From assembly GCA_021613535.1 (NCBI GenBank), contig CP075493.1, forward strand, positions 11,656,001 to 11,720,000: a stretch of DNA of 64,000 nucleotides. Reading direction: 5' to 3'. The notes beneath the pieces were generated by a model, which saw only the letters and a program-made list of their open reading frames with translations, was not told where the DNA came from and did not search any database. Shown in pieces: positions 10,522-64,000 of the stretch. Source of the DNA: Adineta vaga (Eukaryota; Animalia; Rotifera). The first letter of the stretch is position 1; every line of letters begins with the position of its first letter. Made by a program: the position numbers and the translations under genes.

Positions 10522-11508
10522 TCAATATTTTTGTTGAAGTACTGCCATCATTCGCGGTGCAACATCCATCAGCGCTGCATTCCAACAAGGAAATTCATGT
10601 CTTCCATGACAACCATGTCCAATGGATTTACCATTTCCATAGAAATCATAATAATGTGATATATTTAATGAATTTAACATTTTATGCATATGATTATTAC
10701 AATCATGCATAGCAATTTCTATGACACCTTGATTACCTGTATAAAGTGCAATATTTACATCCCGTAATGATGCTGCATGAGTAATTGGATTTTCAACAAC
10801 CCATCCACTTGAATTTGTTATAACAAATGGAATACCAAATGGACCATTGACTGCTTTTTTATCAACAGCTTCTGAACCAAAAATAACTGCTTGAACACCG
10901 AAATTAAGTAAATCAATAGCACCGGAAAAACTTGCTGTATAAATAAATAGATTCGGATAAACTTCTGCATAACGAATAGCACCAAATCCACCCATAGAAA
11001 GACCAGCTATAGCACGACCTCCTTTTCTTGCTACTGTTCGTAGATTTGCATCAATCCAAGGTATTAATTGTTCATTATGAAACGTACGCCAATTTTGTGG
11101 AGCAGCTTTGCCTGGATTAATCCAATTCGTATACCATCCAAATGGATCACCATTTGGCATTATTGTAATTAACGATAAATTTCCAAGAATTTGTTGTGCT
11201 ATACCACCTCGTTCAGTCCAATCTTCAGCCTGACCAACACCACCATGTAATAGATAAAGAACAGGATAATGTCGTGTACTACCACTAGTTGTGTAATCAA
11301 GTGGAAGAAGTATACGAATCTTTTGATCGCCTTTCACTTCCTTCGATTGCACAATAACATCGTAAAGTTCATTGTTAACTTTTGAAAAATTCGTGACTGT
11401 CAGACCAAAACCTGATATAAAATCAGGAAAATCACTTACAACACACTGAGGAAAATAATAAACGATCAGAAGCAATTGAATCCAAGAAAAATGATGATAT
11501 TTATTCAT
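10522..11508 (-). CDS. Secreted alpha/beta-hydrolase esterase (antigen-85 / putative esterase family), bacterial-like
   Basis: Signal peptide, YPVLYLLHG, LIPWIDAN, nucleophile elbow GLSMGG, ASFSG and a C-terminal His (GRHEF). Intronless. Confidence 0.88.
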   Translation of the reverse strand: MNKYHHFSWIQLLLIVYYFPQCVVSDFPDFISGFGLTVTNFSKVNNELYDVIVQSKEVKGDQKIRILLPLDYTTSGSTRHYPVLYLLHGGVGQAEDWTERGGIAQQILGNLSLITIMPNGDPFGWYTNWINPGKAAPQNWRTFHNEQLIPWIDANLRTVARKGGRAIAGLSMGGFGAIRYAEVYPNLFIYTASFSGAIDLLNFGVQAVIFGSEAVDKKAVNGPFGIPFVITNSSGWVVENPITHAASLRDVNIALYTGNQGVIEIAMHDCNNHMHKMLNSLNISHYYDFYGNGKSIGHGCHGRHEFPCWNAALMDVAPRMMAVLQQKY

Positions 11509-12119
11509 CGTTAACTCTTCTAGTATGTTATATTTTTAACCGCTATAAATATATATCAGCTACTACCTCAGATGATAATTTTCTCATCAGCATCTTTTTT
11601 TTTAAATATTGCAAATGAGACTTTATCCCACGATTTTCTTATTTTTTTTTGCTTCTAAAGTTATCTGGAATAGATTATGATTTGATAAATTAGTTTCCCT
11701 TACAATATCGCAGTCATTTGTTATTATGAACCACATCACAATTAGAAGCGATACTCGATCAAATATTCAATCACTCAACATGAAAAACTTCTAATCAATG
11801 TCGAAAAACGTAAAGATATGGTTCAATGCCTAATCTTCAAAAACTAACCGCAGGCTTCTGAAAACAACCAGGAAATACGTTAAAATGGACCCCCATAGAT
11901 AAATGTATTACTTGGTTTTAAAGACATTCAGCAAATACCGTAATTATTCAATAAAAAAAAGCAAATTTTCATCTGTAATAACTTGTGAATTCAAAAAATC
12001 TGTTTATAACAATACTGAAAATAGAAGTTGATATGAATTCGAACCATCGAATGGTAATAGTATTATTTATATGATTCGTCTTGACGATGATCAATGTTCA
12101 AGATATATTGAACATGTCC

Positions 12120-16479: not shown

Positions 16480-17090
16480 ATTCGATGAGAATTAAAACCG
16501 AGATATACTCTGATGAAAATCTTCGTAATAGCTATGAAATGTACGAACGTATTTATAGTATTTATACATGACTTTGAAATACGTATGGGATGTATATGGC
16601 GGGTACTTCATTTTTCTTATTTGAACGAAGATTAAAAAAAGAAAATAACTAAATTTCTAGATGATTAATGCCGAGTGTCAACATTTCGATGACATATAAT
16701 ATATTTGCCAAATACAACCATAATCTCAATGTTTTCAATAGTTTATAACAACTTTTTTTCAGATAAGACAAGTAAAAGAACTCTGTTATAACTTTCATTT
16801 ACACATTCATGTCGATGAAGAATTAGGTAATCGATGGATTAATCTTTCGTTTCTGTTCTCAAAAAGAAGTAAAATGCTATGCAAACAATTTTCAGTCGTT
16901 AAGAAAAAAGAACTCTTTCGACTCATTTTTTCATCGGATTTCATTTTTTAACATAAAACAAAATTTCACACGCACATTTCTGCACATGAAGCAGAGTCTC
17001 GTCTTCTCAACTATGTATCAAAAAGACAAAATTTCAGTTTGTCAAGAGTGAAGATTAACACAATAGTGTAACGATTAATTAGTATTTGTG

Positions 17091-18410
17091 ATGTACGGGC
17101 AACAACGTTGTCGAAAAATCGTATTATTTACTATTTTGATTATAATCTTCATTATGGCAGTAACAAAAATTCCACTACAGCAAACTTGGTCAAGAAATTA
17201 TTTATTTCTATCTAATATATCCGATTTGAATGATTGCTATTATATTGTAAAACCATTCTTTCGTTTCTTGTGTGAGAAAAATAACTCCTTTCAACCAGTT
17301 CAATTATCCACTAATTCAGATAATCATATTTGTTACCAATTATATTCAAACAAAAAAGATGCAGATCTATTCTCTCGTGTACACATCCACTTTCAACCAT
17401 TCAAAAATCGAAAAATCCTTTTCTCAGACATTGAAAATTTATCGAATTCCTGTATCAGTTGTCATCATATTCAAATCATTCAAAACAAACTCTACATTGT
17501 ACCAAGAGCAAATGCATTTAACTATCAAACACGTAGTCGTAGTGTGAAGTTGTTAATCAAACAAATGGTAGATACATTTCCCAATATTCCTGATCTCGAA
17601 CTGTTCTTTCATGTTGATGATGCCGTAGAATTACCTGATGGATTCAACGATGTGCTGTTTAATGTACCAATCTTTGCTTTTAGTAAAACTAATAGAACTA
17701 AAAGAGGTTTGAGGCCAGATGGAATAGTTCCGATGCCATGCTTTACCTTTTGGAGCTGGCCAGAGATACGTGCTGGTCGATGGACTAAAATTTCTCGATC
17801 TATTTTGAATACATCCTACAATCTAGAATATAGCAAACGTGTGCCAAAAATATTTTGGCGTGGAGTTCGAAGTTGGAAGAGAATTTGGTTTCTTAAGACG
17901 GCAAGACAATATCCAAATATTATGGATCTAGCACCGGTGAGTTGGCAGAAAGGGATCGATGGTTTAGCATACAAAGCATCGTTTTCATACAAAACATTGG
18001 AAGAACATTGTAACTATAAATATTTAGCACATCTCGAAGGTAGTTCCTATTCTTCGCGACTAAAGTATCTTCTATTGTGTGGCTCGCCTGTTGTTTATGC
18101 TCCTATTCAATATTGGGAAGAATATTGGTATCATCTTTTGAAAGATGGAGAAAATATTGTGTTTTTTGAATCAGCCGGAAATGAAGGAGCATTTAACAAG
18201 ACACTCGAGTTTTTGATGCAAAATGAAGAAAAAGCAAAAGAAATAGGTCGAAAAGGTCAGCAATTAGTACAAGATTACTTAAATGAACATGCAGTGAGTT
18301 GTTATTGGTGGAAACTACTGAAAGAATATGCTAAACTACTAGGATATAAACCAAGTTTACATCGCGATGCTATTTATATTGATGATTTTCTTCTTGGAGT
18401 TTATGCTTAA
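17091..18410 (+). CDS. Glycosyltransferase family 90 (CAP10/POGLUT-like), type II membrane, copy 1
   Basis: N-terminal TM, PDLELFFHVDD, PCFTFWSWPE, FWRG, LEEHCNYKYLAHLEGSSYSSRLKYLLLCGS and AKEIGRKGQ. Confidence 0.9.
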   Translation: MYGQQRCRKIVLFTILIIIFIMAVTKIPLQQTWSRNYLFLSNISDLNDCYYIVKPFFRFLCEKNNSFQPVQLSTNSDNHICYQLYSNKKDADLFSRVHIHFQPFKNRKILFSDIENLSNSCISCHHIQIIQNKLYIVPRANAFNYQTRSRSVKLLIKQMVDTFPNIPDLELFFHVDDAVELPDGFNDVLFNVPIFAFSKTNRTKRGLRPDGIVPMPCFTFWSWPEIRAGRWTKISRSILNTSYNLEYSKRVPKIFWRGVRSWKRIWFLKTARQYPNIMDLAPVSWQKGIDGLAYKASFSYKTLEEHCNYKYLAHLEGSSYSSRLKYLLLCGSPVVYAPIQYWEEYWYHLLKDGENIVFFESAGNEGAFNKTLEFLMQNEEKAKEIGRKGQQLVQDYLNEHAVSCYWWKLLKEYAKLLGYKPSLHRDAIYIDDFLLGVYA

Positions 18411-18730
18411 TTAAAATGGTTCATCAGAACATATACAGATATTCAACTTATTCACATTTACACTTTCCATAAGCTTCAGAGTAATCGTTTTTTGGTGTTC
18501 TTATGAAAGATAGAATAATATGGAGACAATTTTCAATCATTGTAAAAAATTCATTTTTTCTCTTTGTCTTCTGATCATTTAATATTTTCTGCACGCGAAA
18601 AGAAATAAAAACTCGGCAATTATAGTTTTCTTTTTCGTTCCGATATTTTCAGTTAGCAATGGTAACTTATATCGATATATCTATTTACTGTTTTCTAGAG
18701 TAATCATAGGTTGAATGATGTAGTGAACAA

Positions 18731-20065
18731 ATGAAATTTATCATGTATAATTGTCAACATCGTCGAAGTTTATTATTTCTCATCCTTTTACTTCTAGTTT
18801 TCATTATTATCGTGACAAAAAGTCCATCTCAACAAAACTGGTCATCCGTTATAAATAATTTATTTTCAATGAACGACTCGAAATCTAGTGATTGCCATTC
18901 TATTATGAAATCATCTTTCAGTTTTCTATGTGAGAAATACTCTTTAAAATCAATTCAATTGTACAATGATTCCAATGATCATATTTGTTACCAATTATAT
19001 TCAAACAAAAAAGATGCAGATCTATTCTCGCGTGTACACATCCACTTTCAACCATTCAAAAACCGAAAAATCCTTTTCTCAGACATTGAAAACTTATCGA
19101 ATTCCTGTATCAGTTGTCATCATATTCAAATCATTCAAAACAAACTCTACATTGTACCAAGAGCAAATGCATTTAACTATCAAACACGTAGTCGTAGTGT
19201 GAAGTTGTTAATCAAACAAATGGTAGAGACATTTCCCAATATTCCTGACCTTGATATATTTTTTAACGTTCAAGATATGGTCGATCTACCTGATGGACTA
19301 AATAATATACTTTTCAACGTACCAACATTCGCTTTTGCGAAGACCAACAAAGTAAAAGTTGGTTTGAGATCAGATGGAATAGTTCCGATGCCATGTTTTA
19401 CCTTGTGGAGCTGGCCAGAAACTCGTGCTGGTCGATGGACAGAAAAATCGCAGTCCATTTTGAATGCAGCGCAGAAAATATCATATAAACAACGAAGATC
19501 AAAATTATTTTGGCGTGGAGTATGGAATTGGAAACGAATATGGTATATTGATATAGCAAAACAATATCCACATACTATGGATATAAAAGATGTGAGTTGG
19601 AATGCAAGTGTAGATCGTTTTGCTTATGCAGCGTCAAATACATATATGACACTGGAAGAACATTGTAACTATAAATATTTAGCACATCTCGAAGGTAGTT
19701 CCTATTCTTCGCGACTGAAATATCTATTGCTGTGTGGTTCGCCTGTTTTGTATAATCCGGTACAATATTGGGAAGAATATTGGTATCATCTTTTGAGAGA
19801 TGGAGAGAATATTGTCGTTTTCGAGAAAGCTCGAGACGAAGCAGCGCTTAACAAGATGATTGATTATCTATTGCAAAATGAAAATAAAATGAAACGAATA
19901 GGTCGAAAAGGTCAACAGCTAGTACAAGATTACTTAAATGAACATGCAGTGAGTTGTTATTGGTGGAAATTAACTCATGAATATGGTAAATTACTCGGAT
20001 ACAAACCAACTTTACATCGAGATGCTGTTTATATCGACGATTTTCTTCTTGGAACGTTACTTTAG
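18731..20065 (+). CDS. Glycosyltransferase family 90 (CAP10/POGLUT-like), tandem copy 2
   Basis: Same motifs as copy 1; a clear tandem paralogue. Confidence 0.9.
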   Translation: MKFIMYNCQHRRSLLFLILLLLVFIIIVTKSPSQQNWSSVINNLFSMNDSKSSDCHSIMKSSFSFLCEKYSLKSIQLYNDSNDHICYQLYSNKKDADLFSRVHIHFQPFKNRKILFSDIENLSNSCISCHHIQIIQNKLYIVPRANAFNYQTRSRSVKLLIKQMVETFPNIPDLDIFFNVQDMVDLPDGLNNILFNVPTFAFAKTNKVKVGLRSDGIVPMPCFTLWSWPETRAGRWTEKSQSILNAAQKISYKQRRSKLFWRGVWNWKRIWYIDIAKQYPHTMDIKDVSWNASVDRFAYAASNTYMTLEEHCNYKYLAHLEGSSYSSRLKYLLLCGSPVLYNPVQYWEEYWYHLLRDGENIVVFEKARDEAALNKMIDYLLQNENKMKRIGRKGQQLVQDYLNEHAVSCYWWKLTHEYGKLLGYKPTLHRDAVYIDDFLLGTLL

Positions 20066-23606: not shown

Positions 23607-26173
23607 ATGGCCACAAGAGGTAGCGGTAATAAAGTGTCTTCGACCAAAGAAAAAAAGAACAATCATCATCGAGACGAAGCAAATTTGTCCGACGATGATA
23701 ATGATGGACAAAAAGCTAACTATGAGAGTACAAAGTCAAAATCATCGAGAAGATCATCGGTTCCAACATCTACAAAGGAACATGTTAACGATCCTCATTT
23801 GGAAAGAACATTAGATCGACCACGTACCATCCAATTCCAATTACCTTTACGATCATTCGACTCTGTTTCTTCTTTATCTTCTAAATCATCAAAACATTCT
23901 TATACTGATTCATTATCCGGATCTTCAGCTTCATCATCCTCATCTTCATTATTTGATTCGTCTTCAGAAAACGATTCGGACTCGGAAACTTCTCCTAAGT
24001 CACATACACGTTCAAGATCTCAATCATCAAACGAAGATTTCGACGTTAAACATTGGTTCGAAAACGATATGATGGAAATGAAACATGATCTTAGAGATTT
24101 TTGTAAAAGAAAACCTTTGATCTTATATCATGAATGGAATGCTAAAGTATGTCGTGATCAATTTCGTGCTCTTAAACCGAATGATTCATCGTACGATAAA
24201 CGCCGTCGATTACTTAACGTGACAGTGATGGCTACAACTGATCGTGCGATTGTCAAAGGAAAATATACAGTTAATAATGAAACAGTTGAATTCAATTTTC
24301 CTGGCCGTATGAAAACTACTCTCTATGAACATCTATTAAAGTCACCTCAAGATGATAATATACAAGCAACATTTAAAACAACTGATGTGAATGTTGTGAA
24401 CGATGATTGTGTGAATGTATGTGATCGATTGATGACTAAAGGCTACGATCCTGTGATGCTTAATATGGCTAATTCGTCAACTCCAGGAGGTGGATTTCGT
24501 ACTGGTGCATCTGCACAAGAAGAAGATCTATTCCGTCGATCAAACTACTCTCGTAGTCTTGATATTAATTTCCCTGAAACAGCTGAAAAAAACCATAAGC
24601 GTTCATATTGTAAGTCATCCAATGAACCCGAGCCATATCCAACTAATGTATCAATGTATCCATTGGAAGACTTTGATGCTATCTATACGTCAGGTCTCTG
24701 TTTTTTTCGGCTTGATAAAGATAACGGTTATGCTTTCATGGATGAACCTCTATACGATGTTTGTTGTATAGCAATAGCTGCATCTCGAGATCCTCCAGTT
24801 AAAGATGGACAACTTTCATCAGATATAGCTGAAATAATGCGAAAGAAAGTGGAAACAATTTTTGCCATTGCACACAAGAATAAACATGATTCTTTGGTAT
24901 TGTCAGCATTTGGATGTGGTGCATTTCATAATCCACCTGAGCATGTGGCAAACATATTTAAGTCTGTCATTGAACAATACGCTGGTGTATTTCGTCGAAT
25001 CGATTTTGCGATTGTTGGCGCATCGGATAACTCACATGGAAACTATTCTATATTCAAGAAAGTACTCGATGGACTCAATGTAAAAGCACCTGAAAGAGCT
25101 AAAAGAGATAATAGTACACATGAAATGCAAAAGGATCAAAATTCATCTCGACATATGAAAAAAAGAAATGAATGTCTTTATGGAATTGAATGTCGTCTAC
25201 AATATTCAGAAAAAAATTCAACCCAACATAATACTAAATATACTCATCCATGCCGGTGGTCAGAGCTTTGTACAAATCAAGACAAAGAACCACATTTAAC
25301 TCATGCAAATCATAGAGCTCATCAATGTCGCAATCGTGATGCATGCAAAGATATCATCGATCCTGTTCATAGAGCAAAGTATCGGCATGAAAACTTGCCT
25401 GATTTCCTGGTACCATGCAAGTATCAGCAGAAATGTCGAGATTCAACATGGACTCATCGAGTGAAATATTCACATGGTGAATTGGCCGGAGGTAGGCTTC
25501 GATTGAATTGATCAAGTTTTTCTTGAAATTGCATCGATTATTTACGCATAGATGATAATAAGCATGGAACAACACGGTCAAAATCTGGTATGAATACTAA
25601 GTTTTGATTTTATCGTCAATTTCTGTCCTATACTAACTATTTCAGATCAATCGAAATCAAAATCATCGACTAATGCGAATTATATAACTGGCATGGATCA
25701 TTATGAACCAGATAATCGATCTAGTGACCATTCATATTCAAGAACTAAAGAAAGATCTACAAATAATTCAGAGTCAAAGTCATCTGGTTCTCACCATCAT
25801 GATTCGACCTCACGACGACAATCTTCCGGTATTTTAGTTTTCTTATTTTGAAGAGAAATATATCATTTTTCTTGATTCTTATCATCATTCTTAGATACTA
25901 ATTCACGAACAAAAGGAGAAGATGATCATTACCGCAAAAATCATTCCGACAAGAACAACAGTGGTACTAGTTTATTTAGCTTTGTTTGAAAAATATTCAG
26001 CTTTCTTCCATTTTTCAGATTCAACAAATTCTGGTAAAGTATCGTCAACATCAAAACACAATCGAGAGTTGACATCCATTGATAAACGATCGCATAAAAC
26101 AGAATGCAAATATGGATCACAGTGTTACAACCATGATCAGGATCATCGTTCCAAATATAAACATGAAAACTGA
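23607..26173 (+). CDS. Microbial-type PARG (TIGR02452/DUF2263 macrodomain) with Ser-rich N-terminus and five PBZ-like zinc fingers, 5 exons
   Basis: LNMANSSTPGGGFRTGASAQEEDLFRRS (GGG-x7-QEE), LVLSAFGCGAFHNPP and FRRIDFAI. C-x5-C...H-x3-Y-x-H repeats follow. Four phase-1 GT-AG introns after 25491 lead to KTECKYGSQCYNHDQDHRSKYKHEN*. Confidence 0.88.
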
Positions 26174-26401
26174 TAAAAACTCGTTCCAAATTTTTCTAAC
26201 TTCTTCAATGTGTAGGAAAATTCAAGATTTATTTTGAATATCAATAACAATATCCTAAATAATAGATGTAAAGAATGAGATTTTTACGGTTTGCAAGAAA
26301 AAAAATAGCATAAAATATAGAAATGATCTTATTGTTGCTACTCGTAAAAGAATTTTCCTCAATGATTATATGAACAGTTTTAGATTTAAAGCTAAAATAC
26401 G

Positions 26402-27322
26402 ATGAGCGTTCAACGAAATTCCCGTAGACGAAGTACGTCGGTAAGTAGACTGAATAGATGAATTTTTACAATGACAATTGATTTCGGCACTAACGAAGTT
26501 TTTAGAAAAACGCTTGTTAATAAATTCATTTACGATTCTAACTCTTTATATTATAAGATATCCGCTGATGCTTCCCGTAGCATTCATCGTCGACCATCAA
26601 GACATCGGTCCAGCACACGCCCTCGTTCACACTCGCACCATAGCAGACACTCCTCTCGTCGACGCAAACCTCGCTCAAATCATCGACATAGACAACGAAG
26701 TCATTCTCATCATCATCAAACTAGACGAAGTAGCACAGGCAGTATGCATCGCAAACGGAATAATAATGATAATACTGCATTCATTGAGAGCTCTCTTCAT
26801 CTACACAACAAATTACGTCGTCGACATGGTGCTCGAGCACTTCAGTTGAACAACGATCTTTGTAATCTAGCTCAAAAATGGGGTTCATTATTTCAATTTT
26901 TGAATATTAATCTTTAAAGAATTTATGTTCTTTTATAGCAAATTATCTTGCCGAAAAAACTCAATTTAAACATAGTGGAACGGAATATCGAGGTAGTAAA
27001 CTCGGTGAAAATCTATATTATCAATCGAATCCGATGGAAGGTCAGGTATATTATCAAATACAATATAATATAGATAGATATGTTTTCAGGAGGTAAAGAG
27101 TCAACAAAAGCATGGTATAATGAGATTAAAGATTATGACTTTAACCGTGGTGAATTTAGTCAAGCAACAGGCCATTTTACTCAACTAGTATGGAAAGAGT
27201 CGAAAGAAGTAGGGTTTGGCCTAGCGAAAGGTGCATCAATGTACTACACTGTTGCTATGTACTTTCCGGCAGGCAATATCGACGACCAATTCATGCAAAA
27301 TGTGCTTCCAGTAGCGCGATAA
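26402..27322 (+). CDS. CAP/SCP (GAPR-1/GLIPR2-like) protein with Arg/Ser/His-rich N-terminus, 4 exons
   Basis: HNKLRRRHG, AQKWA, KHS, GENL, WYNE, GHFTQLVWK and YFPAGN, joined by GT-AG introns (26441-26557, 26883-26938, ~27041-27089). Confidence 0.88.
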
Positions 27323-28136
27323 CTTTTTTATTTAATCAACTGATCTTCTTTAATAAAAAAAGAGTTCAAAACTTATTTTCCATAAATTATATCTGTAGAA
27401 GAGCGACCTTTCGGTAACAATTTCTAGCATAAATATAAATTCTAAATCATGTTTACTGCAGATGGATTGAGAAACATTGTGAAGAAATAGTGAAAGAAAG
27501 AAAATGCATTTGTGTTATTCTTTTTGTTCTTGTCTTCAACATAAATAAAACGAAATCAAGAAAAAAATTCTCATGACAGTTTAAACCTGTTTTCAACAAG
27601 AATTTATACGTAAAGGCTATTGAATAGTTATTGCTCTTCTAAAGCTATGCTCTAATAAATTCAAAGAAGTCTTTTCTAAATTTTAATAAGACTTTTACCA
27701 GGTTCATATTTGCAAAAATAGCACCTGCGTTGAAGATTGCTTTCAGAAGTCTTATGCCAACATGTGCTCATTGCACAACAGACTATACGTGGTAATTCAG
27801 GTCATCTATCTTAGTAAGCGCAGGCATCAGAGCATCTTGGTAATTGTGTCAATAATTAACTCCCGTCCGTAATGTTTTTTCTCCCATCTATGATTTTTTC
27901 CCTTGGACGAAAGAACATAATCTATACTATATGACTCATCGTCAAAACCTTACATGTAGATGATTCAAAGATACGAAGTGGTTGAATAAAAAAATATTTT
28001 TGTTGTTCGCTTTTTGCGTGTTATAAAACAGAACGCAAAACATACCACATTTTCATTACCTGTCGACTTTTGTCATCATTTGAAATATTTTGTCCTATAA
28101 CTGGTAAAATATTGTAAAAAACATTACATACGAAAT

Positions 28137-30561
28137 ATGTCGTCGAAAAAAAGTCCTTCACATTCAGCTTCAAAAACGCATCGACATTCTCGTCCAAATT
28201 CGCGCTCAGAATCAAGATCACGTTCAGCTACAAAATCGCGACGAGGTTCTCATCCTGATTCGCGGTCAACATCAAAATCTCGGTCACATTCACGTACGTC
28301 AAAAAGTGCATCGAGAAATCAACATCAGAAGCAAAAGAAGCATCACTATAGAAATCAATACCGCCATTTAAAATACCATGCTGCCGTCGAATATCGTTGT
28401 CTTAATCAAAAAAACGATTTCGTTAAAAATCAAAGCGAGCTTATACGAAAAATTCTAGATCATGCGAACAAAGAAAACTGGAGTAAATCGCATTCAATTC
28501 CACATGATTTTATATCTTATATTCGTCATCTACAACCGGTTCACCAATGTGCACCAGAAATATTTGAGTCAATCTGTATTCTTGGTCACGTACTAAGTAA
28601 AGAGTATAGAGATGACTTAATCAATCCGAGCAAAGCGGTAGAAATTGCAATCCAACACAATGGAGTACGACGGCTTATTCCCGATCTGCTCGTAGATGAT
28701 GCTGATATTTATATTACAAATGTAATCGAGCGCGAGTACGACAAACACAATAATTTACAACTTAGAGAAAACGAGCATCGTAGTATAATTAAAGAGAAGG
28801 GCACTCTGTTGAAGGTGAATCTTGGAGAGAAAACGGTCCGTAAGATTAAAGATTATGCTATTCGTGTTGCAAAGGCAGCACTCACACTTCTGGAGAACAA
28901 ACCAGGAGTTAATCATGACAAAGACAAAGACTTTGGTACGGACCGACATATTTTTGCCATTCTCGGTCCACATCCTGGTAATTATGGTGATGTTTTTATC
29001 GTTTTCAAACGTGAAATCATGCTACATCCAGATTCTAACTTTTCAAGTTCAGCAGCCACTACATACGGACAATCTTCAAATGCCTACAAACATCAACCGT
29101 GGTTAACTGATCCCAAAGCAGAGAAAGAACGAATTCTCTGTTTTCACTCAAATAAAATGCATTGTTCTATAAATGGTTACGAAAATGTTGCAGCACATTC
29201 ATTGATGGCCTTATGTGGGAAAGACACGAATACTTTGAAAGTTAGTTTAAAAAAAGCACAAGAATGGTGGTGTGATCAAGATCCACATTTTGTTTTCGAA
29301 GCTCATCTTCCTTCGAGAGTTCCTCTCGACTATATCGATAGTATTTATATGCCAAAGAACGTTTTCAAGTCGTATTCTCCTCAACTTCAAAAATCTTTAC
29401 GTCAATTTTTTGGTCACTCACTCCACGTCACGCAACATGATGTCGATCAAAATGATAAAAAAAATCGTGGTGAATTAACCGATAAAAATTCACGTTCAGC
29501 CTATCAAAAATATGTGAATGACAATTTGATAAAGAAGTTTTCACGCAGTAAACAAAATCTATCTCATCGCATGCGTGGAACTGCACTTACTGTGGCACAA
29601 AGTGAATTCGTGGAACATATTCGTCTTCCTATGACAATTTCTCAACAATGCACTCTACAAATGCAACTTTCGAAAAACAAAATGAATCTATCATCGAAAT
29701 CACCTACTTATATTTATTGGCAAGCGATGTGGGGTGACATGATGTTAACAGTATCGAATGAGCCTCTTAATATTCGTAGTCTCAGTGATAAAAATCTTCA
29801 ATGTCTTGTCTGTTATATTGCCCGAGTTCCATCTCCTCTTGATAAAGATTATCAAGAATCGTATTCTTATATAACCAACGGCACACCCTTACAGCATAAA
29901 TTTAACATATCTCGACGTAATTACCACGTAGGATCGCACACATTTCATCGTCATTGTAAATTTGATGATTACGTTACCTATCGACTGAAAATTGAACGAG
30001 ATAATGGTCAAGTAACACTCTCTCATGCTGGCCGAGATAGTTATCATAATAAAGAAAAACTCATCTACCGATTTAAGAAGAGCGAGCTTGATTTGAGCAA
30101 GCTTATTTACGTACACATATCGGCAAATGAACATCCGGTAGCAATACGAAATTTAACAATTCGGTTTGAACGGGCGCATCACTCACATACTTCAGTTAAG
30201 CATACCACTGGCCATCGTCGTTCCAGCAAACAAGGAAACTCACAGACGCGTCGTTCTCAATCACGAAAAGGTAAAATCTTAGACTTCTTTTTCAGTTATA
30301 CGCATACTAATGAACTTTGTATTCATTTTCTTTAGGTAGTTTATCATCAAGTCGTGGACGAAATCGAAGCAGATCTTCTGGTACTAGTCATCGCTCTCGA
30401 TCGACATCAAAGAATCGAAAACCGCGACGTACATCTGGTAAATATCAGCATAAAGATCTATTCCATTGTCCTTTGAAACAATTGTCTCTATTTTAGTTGC
30501 CAGTTCAAAACGTTCTACATCTCGTCATAGATCAAAATCAAGTGATCCTCATTCTCATTAA
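28137..30561 (+). CDS. Uncharacterised protein with RS-rich termini and a central putative ADP-ribosyltransferase-like domain, 3 exons
   Basis: Long ORF plus two RS-rich exons ending TAA at 30559-30561. The core GTDRHIFAILG..NYGDVFIVFKRE...FEAHLPSRVPLDYIDSIY resembles ART-fold strand and catalytic-Glu patterns. The gene itself is confident; the fold call is tentative. Confidence 0.6.
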
Positions 30562-30804
30562 CACTACCGGAAACATGGCAAGCGACGTACTTCGCATCGA
30601 ATATATTCAAAAATTCAATAAATCACCGACCAACATGTTATTTGTCTTGATTTCACCTGTATTCATTTATTGTTACAATTCTGTTCCCTTCTATTTCATT
30701 TCAAAATAAACTCGAAAAAGTTTTTTTTAACAATTCTGTATTTGTGTAACAGAGAAGATATTAAAACGAAAGGATCGAAGTTTTGATCAAGCAAAAATCT
30801 CAGT

Positions 30805-30874
30805 TGAGGGTGGGTGAGGGTGCGGATGTTAGATAGATGTAATATTAACACACATACCCAAACCCTCATCCACA
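30805..30874. repeat. TGAGGG-arm / CCCTCA-arm hairpin element
   Basis: tgagggtgggtgagggtg ... cacatacccaaaccctca are imperfect inverted arms around a spacer shared with 9446-9486. Confidence 0.65.
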
Positions 30875-31253
30875 TGAATTTGAATGATTTTTTGGGTTTA
30901 AATCAATCTAATACATAATACAACCTAAAACACAAAAAATGTGAAGTTACCAATGTCACCGCCGAGGTAGGTAACTTTCATTATCATCCAAGAGTCACTT
31001 CAAAAACGATGTAACACGAAATATTCAAGAAAAATCGATCAACATTTTTTGTATAACCATAATTCTTAGATGAGTCACGAACTAAATTTTAACGTAGCAA
31101 ATGTTTTTTTGTCGATGACGTGTTCTGTAATCATTTGTCATAGTTTCGTGTATTTTTGAAAATCATCCGTTAGTGTGCTCGAGGCATACCTTTTCTCCCA
31201 CATTTTCTCCCACGTTTTCTCTCTTCATCTGTTCTGACACACTATTACTCAAC

Positions 31254-31269
31254 GTGTGTGTGTGTGTGT
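31254..31269. repeat. (TG)n microsatellite
   Basis: gtgtgtgtgtgtgtgt. Confidence 0.7.
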
Positions 31270-31383
31270 TTAAGCATTTTATATTTGTCGATTCTTATGG
31301 CTTTTTTTTTCTTTTGGTATAAAAGACACCTATACCTCTCATACTTCGAACATTGCTTATTGTGAAAAGAAATAGTTACGAAA

Positions 31384-33106
31384 ATGAGTTATTCAGAAAA
31401 CCCATCAGTCAGTAAACCACAGAACGATTTACGAAAGGAACATCAAGAACGGCACAAACCAAATGATTCTGAACCATCATCATTCAAATCTCGACCTTGT
31501 CGCGATGGTTTAGACTGCATTCTTTATGATTCTATTACTCATTGCTCAAAATATTCGCATCCGTGTCGATTTGCGCATCGATGCAATAAAAAAACTACGG
31601 AGCCGAATTTTACCCACGAACCTAATCCTACTCAACAGTGTAGATATGATGAGCAATGTCGAAAGATCAATGACCCACTTCATCGTGCAAGTTATTGGCA
31701 CTCGAATAAATCTGACTATCTACGAGCTTGTCGTGATCACGTACGATGTTCCGACAATTCATTTGAACATCGATCCCAATATGCACACGGAGAATATAAA
31801 TCAAGTACTTATTTTCATTTCTTTTACAAAACATAAAGCATATCATTACTTTAGTCTTCAATTCTAAACCATTGCCAGTACATTCTCAACATAATAATGA
31901 TCATCAACATATTCATAAGAAAGATTCACACAAACAAAGTACCGACAAAAGTTCTAAAACAATCGATCGTGCAAGAAATACGTCCTCGAATCATTCTCCA
32001 CCTGATCGAACGCAATTGCAAAGAAAAGAAAAAATACAAAGTCCTGACCGATCTACGAGTCAAGAAAAAGCAAGCGTACATAAAAAACCTGGCAACAAAG
32101 AAAATACGACCAGCGGAAGACGATCACAAAGCCGAGGCAGATCAAATAGCAAAGGTCGATCACAAAGTCGAAAACGATCGCAAAGCCGAGAAAAACTAAA
32201 ATCAGAACGAAAACCAAGCAATAAAGAAAAATCGAGCAGTGGAAGACGATCACAAAGTCGAGACCGATCAATTAGCAAAGGTCGATCACAAAGCCGAGGT
32301 AGATCAAACAGTAAAGGTCGATCCAAAAGCCAAGAAAAATCAAAAATACAAGGAAAATTGGACAATCGCGACAAAAAGGGAACTGATGAAAGATCGCAGG
32401 ATCGAAGCAGATCCAAGAGCCGAGAAAAATCAAAAACACAAAGAAAACTGGGTAACCAAGATAAATTGCACAGTGAAAGAGGGGCACGAAGTCGAAGTAG
32501 ATCACAAAGTCGAACAAAATCCGATGGCTCTACTTCTCAGGATTCAACAAGTAAGATTCAGTAAAATATTTTTACTTTTGATGCCTAAAACTTTCCGATA
32601 AAGTTGTAAGTTTCAGTAATGAGTTACTGTCAAAGATGTATGTGATGCGCTATTATAGTGAGCAGGTCTTTCTGGCACAGAAACAAATATGCCGAAAGGA
32701 GACTTTTTCGGATTGTGAAGAATATGAAGCGGAAGCCATAATATCTACAAAAGATTTTTCTCCTGATCTACTTTCGATGATAAAAATAGGCGTGGATGAT
32801 GATGATTATGTATGTATGTATGTATCTCTTTTTCATTCTTACTATATTCATCCTCAAGTCAGAGAATAGATTTTTTTGAATCTAATTATACAATATGGTA
32901 TTTCTTCTTTAGAAGTTTTATCATCAGTACCAGAAAACACTCCGAAATCAATTTTACGTCCTTCTCGCCGTTCAAGATCTAGAGATTCAGCTGGAAATGG
33001 TTCGTAGAAATTTTTGTGAACTTAATATAACCTCTTTGTCTCTATAGAATTTAAGAATAATGCTGCACGAGGTCGATTCTCAAGATCAAGAAGTGAATCG
33101 AAATAA
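31384..33106 (+). CDS. PBZ-like four-zinc-finger cassette protein with long RS/KS-rich basic tail, 4 exons
   Basis: The finger cassette is collinear with that of the PARG gene. Intron 31805-31854 joins it in frame to hexapeptide repeats (RSQSRG/RSNSKG). Further phase-1 introns lead to the stop at 33104-33106. Confidence 0.8.
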
Positions 33107-59864: not shown

Positions 59865-60818
59865 TCAAACATTTGTAGCAATTATACTGAGCATACCATA
59901 AATACTCAATGTCTCACGAACTTTTTCGACATGAAAAAGCGTCTTTTTGTTTTTATGATCATTTGTAGTTACTTGCAACATTTCAATCTTTTCCGGTGTG
60001 ATTTTAGGGAAAAGAATTTGATACAATCCATCGGCAGTTCGAATAACAAAATATTGTTTTGGTTTCTTAATAATCACATCATTATTCGATTGACAAACAA
60101 GATTTTGAAGTATATCTAATTTTTCTAATTCATTAATTCCCACATATGCAGCAAGATAAATCACCTGACATTCATTTAAAATTGTTCGAACGTTATTAGG
60201 TAATGGATGTTCACTAATATCTTGTGTAATGAAATGCATACGTTGAAAAAGATCTGGAGATAATATTTGTTCACTAAGAACAGATGCTAATTGATTTGCT
60301 TCTTCACACATATCAATATTATAAATATCGACGCAAGGTCCATGATCATTAAGAATAATCAAAGAAGATGTAGGAATTGGACCTGATCCAATAAAAGCAA
60401 TTTTTGTCACTAAAAAATCAGTTTCTGCATTGTTATTTGTTAAATTTTTAGCAAGATAAACATCAAGTTCTTGAAGCATGTTTATTTCACATTGAATTAA
60501 TTCTTCGTAACCTTTACGATGTTTGAAATGTTCACTGAAATTATGATTTCGATCAACAGCACAGATCTTTGCTGCTCGTATTTCACCGTAGAGACCATAG
60601 AGAGCAAATAAACGACGAAGATTTTCACATGATATTTGTAATTCTGTATCTGTCTGTAACATGTGATCCACTGAGGATGAATTCATATCTTTTGACGACG
60701 AACACAATGTAATAAGTTCATCGAATAAATCAACAATTTGCGGAGAAAATTCAGTTATATCAAGTTGAGAAAGTTCAGTATTTAATTGAATAAGTCGATC
60801 ACGCATAGAATTGTTCAT
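59865..60818 (-). CDS. Nicotianamine synthase-like (NAS family) SAM-dependent aminocarboxypropyltransferase
   Basis: YEELIQCE, KIAFIGSGPIPTSSL, NIDM..AN..A, VIYLAAYVG..EK..IL and VIRTADGLYQILFP follow the NAS motif order. Intronless. Confidence 0.85.
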   Translation of the reverse strand: MNNSMRDRLIQLNTELSQLDITEFSPQIVDLFDELITLCSSSKDMNSSSVDHMLQTDTELQISCENLRRLFALYGLYGEIRAAKICAVDRNHNFSEHFKHRKGYEELIQCEINMLQELDVYLAKNLTNNNAETDFLVTKIAFIGSGPIPTSSLIILNDHGPCVDIYNIDMCEEANQLASVLSEQILSPDLFQRMHFITQDISEHPLPNNVRTILNECQVIYLAAYVGINELEKLDILQNLVCQSNNDVIIKKPKQYFVIRTADGLYQILFPKITPEKIEMLQVTTNDHKNKKTLFHVEKVRETLSIYGMLSIIATNV

Positions 60819-61047
60819 TGTTCTTTGAAAATAAATGCAGTCCAAGTAGTACGTTGCAAAAGATGACTTGCAGTTTCAGAGTAGATTCAAAGTTGTATAT
60901 ATACATAAAAATACTTTATCATTCTGTATGATAACAACATTTTTTTCTTTTTTTTTCTGTTGATATTATGATACAACAAAAAACATGTAGATTATATGGA
61001 AAGATATATTCTTTCACAATTATATTAGAATCTGTAGTTGAAATTAT

Positions 61048-62135
61048 TTATTCAAAGAAAGTTTTTTTAGCAGGAAATGTCGAATATCGTCTACGAATGG
61101 CATCATTACGTCTTAATGTTAAGACATGAATTAATGCTCTGATTTCACCAATACGATGGCCAACAAAATGATCATAGGAACTGCCTTCATGTGGTTGTTG
61201 AAGAGCAAGTTCTTCCAATTCTCTTTTTAAATTTTCAATAAATTCGTTGCAATCATTGATTATGTCTTCTATAAAAGAAAAAGGAACAAACAAAATATTT
61301 CATTGAATATATCTTTTTTTCTGATTCGTTTACGTACCATCGGACATTGCATACAGACACACATGTTTATATTCATGTAATCCATTGATAGACAATGGTT
61401 GTTGTTGACCTTTACTTTGTCGAATGACACCTTTTACTATTTTTTCAAACATATCAGGAATACTAACATCTGCTAGAACAATATTTTCACATAAATGTTT
61501 GGCAAATAGATTATCTTGAGTTTTCTTTCGCTTATTATCAATAAATTGATGGGCAGCACAAGAAAATTGAATGAATGTTTCATCAGGTACAGTCATTGTC
61601 TGGAGACCTTTGTTCTGCTCACCAGCTAAAACAAAACGTAAACAGTAGTTTCTATAAACTATAAACAATGTTTATTCTACGTACGATTTGATGGCGATTC
61701 ATTTTTGTAAAAATATCGTTTATTACAATCAAGAATAAATATATTCACGTAAGATTGATTTTTGTCTGTTATTTTTGATAATGCGCTTGTAACATTAGCA
61801 CCTATATCTTGAACATCCATATCTTTACCTATTTTCTCATCATCGGTAGGTATCATATAATTAGTTCCATCAACCTGTCGACATTGACCAGAAAAATAAA
61901 CTAAAACTAGATCTCCATCGGTAATTTCTTCAGCGAAAGTTGCAATAGTGTTCAGTATTTCTTTATCAACATTTAAACGAGTAGTTACTTTGAAATTAAT
62001 TGTCTCGAGTAAACCACTTAGTTCCCTAGCATTTTTAACCGCATGTTCTAGCCGATTCTCTTTCAGTTTATAGGTACCGTTACCAATAATGAGTGCTCGT
62101 TTCTTATGAGATGAAGAATTATCGGCACTTGGCAT
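61048..62135 (-). CDS. Peptidase C14 caspase-like protein, predicted inactive, 3 exons
   Basis: KRALIIGN..Y, YFSGQC (His replaced by Gln), NYMIP.D, ILDCNK (catalytic Cys lost) and the p10-like NLFAKHL..QQP. Confidence 0.85.
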
Positions 62136-62748
62136 ATTTTTATTTATATCTAAAATACAACCTCCGACAAGCAATACCTTCGAACTTAACAAAATTATTC
62201 TGCGACATTTCATTAAAAAAAAGTTGCATCGTCTGCATACAAAATCAGGGGTAATATTTCAACACATTTAACTTTATTTTTCATCGAAAAAAAATTCCAA
62301 CTAAACAAGATTTCGTAAGTGATGTGTTGTGATGCTTTGTATGTTGGAAAAAATTAAAATGCATTTGTCGTTAAAAAAAACAGACGAATTCATACAAACT
62401 TAAAAACAACAACAAAGATTATGTTTACCGAGCACAAAAAAGAGAAAGTGAGTAACTTTTCTTGCTTCCAACCGATTTTTACCCTAAACGACATTTTTTT
62501 ATGCTAAATCATGCTATACATACATACGTGATTTTTAATATTACCTTGCGTTCAGCGCCAAAAAGGTATCCAACGATGAAACACTGTGTAAACATCCTCT
62601 CTAGGTCTATTGAAACCTGTTGAGTGAAATTTTACATTTTCGAGGAAGTATTGTATTTACATTCGAAAAATACAATGCGAATATAAAATAAAGTGTCAGT
62701 ACATGATCAATCTTTAGATTTAGCTAATATTTCAGATATAGAGCAGAA

Positions 62749-64000
62749 ATGGCACGTTCTAATGACGATTCATCACAACATCGAAAGTTAGCATTAGTCA
62801 TTGGAAATGGCGATTATAGTCTACGAGAAAATCGATTAGATTATTCAAGAAAAAATGCTCAAAGTATTGCCAATTTATTAGAACAACTAGGATTCGATGT
62901 GAAACTTGCCCATGATTTACCTAAACATGAATTGACCACATGTATTATTGATTTTTCTAAAAAAATCGAAGATGGTGATTTAGTCGTATTCTATTTCTGT
63001 GGTCATGCATGTTATAGTAACGGCGATAACTATCTCATACCCGTCTGTGATAATCAGATAGTTGCACAAGACGATATGAAGGACTTTGCTAATAAATACG
63101 AACATATGGTATCACGTATACTAGAAAAAAATGAATCATATGTAACTATTCTAATTTTTGACTGTGCAAAATCATATTTAACAAAGAGTACAAGAAAATC
63201 AAAATGTAAGTATAAGATCATTAAATGCTTTGAAAAGATACAAGTCATATTAATTTAGCATTAAGCCAATGTGATGGATTAGTGGAGACAAAACCATCTG
63301 CTGGAACAATAGTGCAATTTGCCCGTTCTACTAATCAACATGCAAAAGACAATAATGATACAGGCTCGTACAATTTATATTTTAGACATTTATTAAATAG
63401 CATTGCTGAAGAAAATGTTGATATTGCGGATGCTTTTCAACGTATTGACAATGCTGTACGCCAGGAAAGTAAAAATACACAAAAACCTGTATCTATGAAT
63501 GGTTTACGCAAAAACCAATTGATTTGCCTCAATCTTGTTGTCAAACCTGTTGAGAGTAAGTTGATATTAATATGTACAAAAGAATTGCATCTTTCTGTCG
63601 CTCTTACTCTCTCATCAATCTATCGGTTTTGTAATTTATAGAATGGGATGAAATCAAACCAAGTGAGATGGCATCCGTAAAGAAAAAACAAACGGAGATG
63701 AGGGCGTGTTATGATAATTTTCCAAGTATTGATGATCTTACCAAAAAAAACAAACCAAGTATTGCAAGAGCAGAGAAATTGACACAACAGATTTTATCAC
63801 AACCACCATCGGGAGATGCCGGGCAAAGGGATACTGCATGCCATGTTCTACACAAACTCTTCGAACAGGAAAATCAAGAATGTTTATTCTTTGATTCCAC
63901 TCAAAACATGACACTTCATGATGCATCAGGAAGTTTGGCTGATTTTAGTTCTCAAGAAAAACCATTTGTTTTAAAATTAAACAATGTCGATGGACTCGGT
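62749..64000 (+). CDS. Peptidase C14 caspase-like protein with additional C-terminal domain; runs off the window end
   Basis: RKLALVIGN.DY, YFCGHA, NYLIP, FDCAK and a p10 exon. A third exon from 63642 stays open to 64000. Confidence 0.85.

Follow-up and report, generated by a model that had tools for sequence, protein, structure and literature searches.

In DarT-DarG and in PARP14-type pairs, a transferase and a macrodomain hydrolase are kept together. Compared with these systems, the locus of the bdelloid rotifer Adineta vaga described here has an eraser that is a PARG-type macrodomain, and its predicted pair is eukaryotic, fused in most members of the family, and split at this locus. The enzymes closest to the eraser are the bacterial-type PARGs (PF10021/DUF2263, TIGR02452), represented by the solved structures from T. 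curvata (3SIG) and D. radiodurans (5ZDA-G), with which the A. vaga gene I4U23_003799 has in common the fold, the signature and the position of the catalytic glutamate. The solved bacterial enzymes differ from it in being single-domain proteins without fingers, at about 25% identity, and the exo/endo-determining cap near their C-terminus aligns poorly with the rotifer protein. Bacterial-type PARGs are reported to cleave poly(ADP-ribose) (PAR; PMC6445106), and also to release ADP-ribose from phosphate ends and from RNA to which it is linked through the 2'-OH (PMC11833690), so that the substrate need not be the chains made by PARPs.

Rotifers have been listed among the eukaryotes with a bacterial-type PARG (Cho et al., PMC6445106), and Perina et al. 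2014 (PMC4245714), citing Slade et al. 2011, mention several PBZ repeats in the PARG of A. vaga, i.e., the same pairing of PARG and PBZ-like fingers, in the same species, as in I4U23_003799. The pairing is already known; in the accessible part of the 2014 paper it is given without an accession, an origin, a fused transferase or a split locus, and a literature search, which misses most subscription journals, retrieved no description of the fused transferase or of the split locus. We consider it fairly probable that I4U23_003799, a bacterial-type PARG, is the shortened eraser half of a protist-type eraser-finger-transferase protein that was gained horizontally and whose locus has since been split.

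I4U23_003799 (UJR16901.1 at NCBI) occupies positions 23607..26173 of the window, i.e., the whole stretch of 64,000 nucleotides that was analysed, and all features given below lie on the + strand. Its five exons are spliced to a product of 775 aa that matches the NCBI entry letter for letter. The initial annotation had placed the gene at 24380..26173; the end was correct, and the start has to be moved upstream, because 24380 lies inside the catalytic domain and the reading frame begins with the ATG at 23607. Exon 1 (23607-25491) covers, without interruption, the PARG domain and four of the fingers, as had been annotated, and both finger sequences quoted at that time are present. It is followed by four GT-AG introns, at 25492..25551 (60 nt), 25588..25645 (58 nt), 25829..25894 (66 nt) and 25964..26018 (55 nt), all in phase 1, as proposed before. 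They are skipped, i.e., the four exon joints are found, in contigs of three out of three RNA-like runs (from two studies) and in none of one evenly covering run; the RNA nature of the three runs is a guess from their behaviour, namely skipped introns and some empty intergenic bins. One contig of 2245 nt spans 23826 to 26309, and the last exon is therefore spliced in, which had been named as a point to be checked.

Among the exon differences in the rows listed (40 of 181), eight of 12 are silent and four are not. Gene order, with a CAP gene and an arrestin gene as flanks, equates I4U23_003799 with FUN_001653 of an A. vaga table (supplement of PMC12220480), where it carries a flag for horizontal acquisition and a base mean of 110, and is listed as unchanged in spaceflight (FDR 0.43). 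FUN_003799 was rejected as a counterpart, as the shared number belongs to another gene.

The protein starts with a Ser-rich low-complexity N-terminus (aa 1-169, 23607..24113), identified from sequence, which is followed by the bacterial-type PARG catalytic domain (aa 170-494, 24114..25088), delimited by profiles, alignment and a predicted model. The earlier assignment of a microbial-type DUF2263 domain is upheld by PF10021 (E 7.7e-22, 78.7 bits versus a cut-off of 23.5) and TIGR02452 (116 bits versus a cut-off of 50), by a sequence match to the T. curvata PARG (E 1.3e-15), and by an alignable D. radiodurans PARG. A model of the domain, built with 78 sequences and mostly at pLDDT > 90, retrieved the T. 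curvata PARG with E 2e-15 in Foldseek, versus 5.9e-07 for the best canonical PARG. In the alignment to 3SIG, the signature GGG-x7-QEE (aa 294-306, 24486..24524) is intact, and Glu306 aligns with the catalytic glutamate of the solved bacterial PARGs. I4U23_003799 thus encodes, from a spliced transcript, a bacterial-type PARG with an intact motif, for which cleavage of ADP-ribose linkages is predicted; by analogy, Glu306 would hydrolyse ribose-ribose ADP-ribose links, either in PAR chains or in ADP-ribose on RNA or nucleic-acid ends. It should be noted that P0243 and P0244 are two halves of a close orthologue, apparently on one 2603-base JGI contig, which is broken just after the signature.

The Cx5C...Hx5H spacing of the PBZ fingers of APLF and CHFR (PF10283) is shared by all five fingers of I4U23_003799, and the arginine of the C-Y-R motif is missing from all five. 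Four PBZ-like fingers form a block in exon 1 (aa 523-547, 549-569, 574-594 and 604-623; 25173..25475), and the fifth (aa 751-773, 26096..26164) ends the protein. Five PBZ-like fingers had been claimed, which is correct for the spacing, and the claim holds at Pfam level for finger 5, not for fingers 1-4: finger 5 reaches 28.7 bits when scanned alone (20 bits within the whole protein; cut-off 22.7), fingers 1 and 4 scanned singly stay below the cut-off with 17.3 and 15.7 bits, and fingers 2 and 3 gave no PBZ match when each was scanned singly against Pfam. Scored against the printed PBZ consensus (PMC4030884) together with the APLF C-Y-R residues as given in PMC6264785, finger 5 has five of six features, and fingers 1-4 have four, zero, one and two. 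The predicted model of fingers 1-4 is of low confidence (pLDDT about 45-79), and a profile of the finger family finds APLF structures weakly (E 0.063 and 0.23). Judged by their sequences, fingers 1-4 are best called PBZ-like motifs. The last PBZ would bring the enzyme to poly(ADP-ribose), and the four degenerate fingers would bind zinc and hold a partner or a nucleic acid, rather than PAR in the manner of APLF.

The Pfam-grade last finger invites a different view, i.e., that I4U23_003799 is a general DNA-damage PARG without a particular connection to the neighbouring gene, recruited through its last PBZ to the chains that PARPs make when the animal has dried or been irradiated. In A. vaga, radiation and rehydration are reported to induce PARP genes (PMC10809525), PBZ fingers are present on a foreign ligase E in bdelloids (PMC10665377), and the PARG of Deinococcus is described as an aid to recovery from UV (PMC6445106). 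However, most PBZ consensus residues are missing in four of the five fingers, and the relatives of the neighbouring transferase gene described below also stand against this view, which we regard as less likely, though as the strongest of the alternatives.

The shortened-eraser reading, in turn, is based on a family of long proteins. The frame of the neighbouring gene at 28137-30561 is similar to the tail of a paralogue. Its longer relatives comprise 114 proteins of 1099-3135 aa, in most of which its domains are fused to a PARG; the named ones are all from bdelloids, including four more from A. vaga, a paralogue count taken from protein hits. Their layout is an N-terminal region, PARG, about eight fingers, a transferase-fold domain, a lectin-like domain, a four-finger block and often a last PBZ. 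In 89 of the 114, the PARG signature is intact and so are the His and Glu-x-His motifs known from the neighbour; 23 keep the transferase motifs alone and two the PARG signature alone, so that most long relatives have their own transferase, which argues against a general DNA-damage PARG. In four of the 114 (P0134, P0137, P0152 and P0155), a classic NAD:arginine ADP-ribosyltransferase (PF01129) replaces the PARG, and these proteins are predicted to have two writers and no eraser.

When mapped onto the window, the long relatives keep their domain order, with the PARG first, then 28227-30287, and then 31381-31809; their four-finger block maps both on I4U23_003799 and on 31381-31809. At the N-terminus, they match only from about 24012-24036, and aa 1-169 of I4U23_003799 occupy the place of another N-terminal region. 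I4U23_003799 combines a PARG that belongs to the bdelloid clade with the homologous finger block of the long family, and is without the central finger array, the transferase-fold domain and the lectin-like domain, the last two of which are found on 28137-30561. Profiles of the three finger blocks were made from 75, 82 and 48 of 99 long proteins with the motif located, and the four fingers of I4U23_003799 scored as the C-terminal block (131.6 bits, versus 33.1 and 11.3 for the other blocks), which suggests that the gene consists of a PARG joined directly to the last block of the family, with the middle absent. The orthologue P0362, with 71% identity over the PARG domain, shows the same short arrangement, with a frame that stops shortly after the corresponding point, and the neighbour gene has a 69% relative (P0388); thus, neither the PARG gene nor its neighbour is a recent ruin.

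The gene with the missing domains lies two genes downstream of the PARG gene (28137..30561, three exons, 766 aa) and carries the ART-fold and the lectin-like domains between Ser/Arg-rich tails; it and the PARG gene are on separate contigs, with stop codons between them. It is followed by a second neighbour gene (31384..33106, four exons, 420 aa), which contains another copy of the four-finger block and a Ser/Arg-rich tail. The locus would stem from duplication and complementary loss of domains; that the two four-finger blocks of the window are only 40% identical and are not each other's nearest relatives is a point against this reading. In one contig of run X12, a joint skips 26245-30869 (4625 bases), so that the CAP and transferase genes would be missing; it has 21 letters on the short side, and its far end is a repeated stretch, so that the skip between 26244 and 30870 is possibly a presence/absence allele or an artefact. 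Two metagenome scans found no loci orthologous to the I4U23_003799 region. Between the PARG and the transferase genes lies a CAP (SCP) gene (window 26471-27322) with an Arg/Ser/His-rich N-terminus, the two introns of which are skipped in RNA-like contigs. Ser/Arg-rich low-complexity tracts occur in all four genes from 23607 to 33106.

The first domain of the transferase gene, a predicted SopF/OspC/DarT-like transferase domain (28389..29435, with a His at 28542-28544 and Glu-x-His at 29298-29306), is named by nothing in Pfam or NCBIfam, and its sequence profile found no solved relative. A UL49 match (E 0.009) was set aside, and an Atlas lead to OspC was weak (33% of members, recognition below threshold). 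A two-domain model, made from 47 of the 99 aligned sequences, has a pLDDT of 90 and a pTM of 0.90. With the whole model, Foldseek results were filled by lectins, which match the second domain, and SopF appeared with an E value of only 4.9e-3. In a wide structural search with this model, residues of about 1-378 had SopF as the top match (Z 11.7, rmsd 4.0, 215 aligned), and OspC3 (Z 10.6, rmsd 3.9, 206 aligned), CopC (Z 10.2, rmsd 4.1, 206 aligned), DarT (Z 9.7, rmsd 3.3, 177 aligned) and DarT1 (Z 9.5, rmsd 3.7, 180 aligned) were also retrieved; overall, the likeness in fold to SopF, OspC3, CopC and DarT is at Z 9.3-11.7 with 8-14% identity. Residues 399-598 gave CBM66, lectins and galectins with Z up to 11.5, and 29574..30173 accordingly encode a ConA-lectin/CBM66/galectin-like beta-sandwich, identified by the structural search of the model. 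The first domain is thus predicted, with middling Z scores, to be an ADP-ribosyltransferase fold of the SopF/OspC/DarT type.

Conserved residues are in accord with this prediction. Among 99 rows, His55 is found in 98, Phe192 in 97, Tyr202 in 96, Glu307 in 99 and His309 in 98. CopC is reported to use His137-Phe183-Glu325 together with His327 (PMC9239266), and the order of its H-F-E triad, i.e., His, aromatic residue, Glu-x-His, is the same in the neighbour domain; from this residue order, His55-Phe192-Glu307/His309 would correspond to the CopC triad. The copy in the window departs from near-invariant positions, including an Arg (98 of 99) that is a Gln and a His (89 of 99) that is a Leu, and its transferase activity may therefore be altered. 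The neighbour gene and its long relatives differ from these transferases by a helical insertion of large size, and they have finger arrays and a lectin-like domain instead of ankyrin repeats; moreover, the neighbour is a host gene and not an injected effector. In proteins that are mostly eukaryote-like, the transferase-fold domain is also found fused to Roc-COR/LRR, GBP, WWE, VWA, kinase or MFS (P0444, P0484, P0504, P0441, P0494, P0523 and P0512). The fusions to GBP, Roc-COR/LRR, WWE, VWA and kinase lean towards a role in defence, and those to GBP, Roc-COR/LRR or WWE, which suggest conflict or immune roles, count as a further point against a general DNA-damage PARG.

Because the middle domain of the family is predicted to have an ART-like fold and is a separate gene here, I4U23_003799 is likely the eraser half of a split protein. 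Its main job would be to reverse or limit the marks of the family's own transferase, now the neighbouring gene; the basis for proposing that the PARG acts on the neighbour's product is the fusion in the relatives. The combined action of writer and eraser would serve defence or a stress response. A wider proposal, which we put forward tentatively, as plausible and short of probable, is that bdelloids took over a protist-derived, self-contained ADP-ribosylation system, with a writer, an eraser and PBZ-like arrays in one chain, as a switch of innate defence, and that at this locus it has been split, in a manner reminiscent of toxin-antitoxin pairs, into separately expressed genes for the eraser, the writer and fingers alone. 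What would matter in its own right is that amoebae, CRuMs and bdelloids encode a predicted transferase with a fold like that of DarT and of bacterial effectors, and have retained it together with an eraser of its own. In addition, the natural split supplies small, separate predicted writer and eraser proteins that can be assayed one at a time, and the pair allows asking what is modified, and whether in defence or in DNA repair, in an animal that survives drying and radiation.

The origin of the gene bears on two further alternatives. The initial annotation had suggested that the rotifer took up an enzyme of bacterial or fungal type without fingers, which then gained PAR-reader fingers by exon shuffling. 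The phase 1 of all four introns and the separate exon of the last PBZ agree with this scenario, and ligase E offers an earlier example of PBZ fingers gained after a transfer (PMC10665377). However, the four other fingers share the exon of the enzyme, phase-1 introns are the rule in the three related genes (window 23607-33106; nine of nine, all within low-complexity tails), and a similar PBZ (56% identity over 25 aa) is also found at the end of the long relatives. Furthermore, there are finger-bearing PARGs outside bdelloids in which these blocks follow one another in the same way. A search with the transferase domain of 1.84 billion representatives gave 287 hits, of which 150 are listed; three of ten hits looked up were Diphylleia rotans, Copromyxa protea and Pelomyxa schiedti, and each has PARG, fingers, transferase and fingers in this order. 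In Stygiella incarcerata and other rows, the PARG is followed directly by the first finger pair of the family (40.5, 43.8, 34.3 and 26.1 bits). Of at least 578 matched bacterial loci, 80 were fetched, and none of the 79 with a full PARG domain has a finger in the PARG frame. The addition of reader modules in the animal by exon shuffling, very improbable in our estimate, is already largely refuted by the protist layouts, and since the four-finger block is that of longer proteins and protists have the same order, the gene seems to have been derived from a longer one by shortening.

The trees, which contain no fungal, Naegleria, Exaiptasia or any non-bdelloid animal sequences, and in which the bdelloid label of part of the rows is deduced from clustering, place the catalytic domain among finger-bearing rows. 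In a tree of 81 rows, 18 bdelloid-clade rows group together (98/98) and form a 22-row group with four finger-bearing outsiders (89/98, with a bootstrap that had not settled). In a second tree, for which 23 rows were dropped for size and 20 were added, the 17 rows of the bdelloid clade (99/99) fall within a group of 27 rows (99/95), the other ten of which are all finger-bearing, Stygiella being the one named row. When the bdelloids are constrained to group with 21 bacterial rows, 49.6 log units are lost and the p-AU is 0.0504, for the catalytic domain alone, and this last value leaves some room for the bacterial sister that the exon-shuffling scenario would favour. In BLAST, Bacteroidales-like and finger-bearing rows share the top scores outside bdelloids (199, 194 and 194 bits), and the three giant proteins of the named protists fall elsewhere in the tree on long branches, which speaks against a protist source. 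A eukaryotic source is thus proposed because of the shared multi-domain order, more than because of the tree. As to the horizontal acquisition claimed before, a foreign origin is probable, as the bdelloid rows nest among finger-bearing non-bdelloid rows; a bacterial sister is not rejected at the p-AU given.

A fused gene that is ancient in eukaryotes, descended vertically in rotifers, and was lost in most animals would make horizontal transfer unnecessary. The occurrence of the layout in Amoebozoa and CRuMs and of PARG with fingers in a jakobid would fit such a history, as would entries of the published A. vaga table (PMC12220480), in which the best non-rotifer hit of the neighbour gene is from Naegleria and that of FUN_001653 is a protein of the sea anemone Exaiptasia; moreover, nine of the ten nearest tree rows could be other small animals. 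Against it, every named animal among the matches listed (120 of 190, 114 of 114 and 120 of 456) is a bdelloid, the PARG and the neighbour genes are both flagged as horizontally acquired in the same table, and the catalytic region is without an intron. Vertical descent is therefore judged improbable, and with the horizontal gain that we favour, bdelloids would have acquired the whole fused gene from a microbial eukaryote and then multiplied it.

Some additional observations concern possible transfers of other genes. P0119, a PARG without fingers from Candidatus Berkiella, took a position among eukaryote-like rows in every tree, with long branches, and is possibly a transfer from an amoebal host. 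In a quick tree, P0109/P0115 and Berkiella fell on the bdelloid side; this grouping was dropped, as the careful trees did not recover it. Four further frames of the window are candidate foreign genes, which, by eye, we take to encode a TauD-type dioxygenase (2016-2720), a bacterial-type esterase (10522-11535), a nicotianamine-synthase-like protein (59865-60875) and caspase-like proteins (61677-63641). In addition, tandem genes of glycosyltransferase family 90 are present at 17079-20065, the second of which was assigned by a profile scan, and the genes matching this pair have fungal and algal best hits in the published table (PMC12220480).
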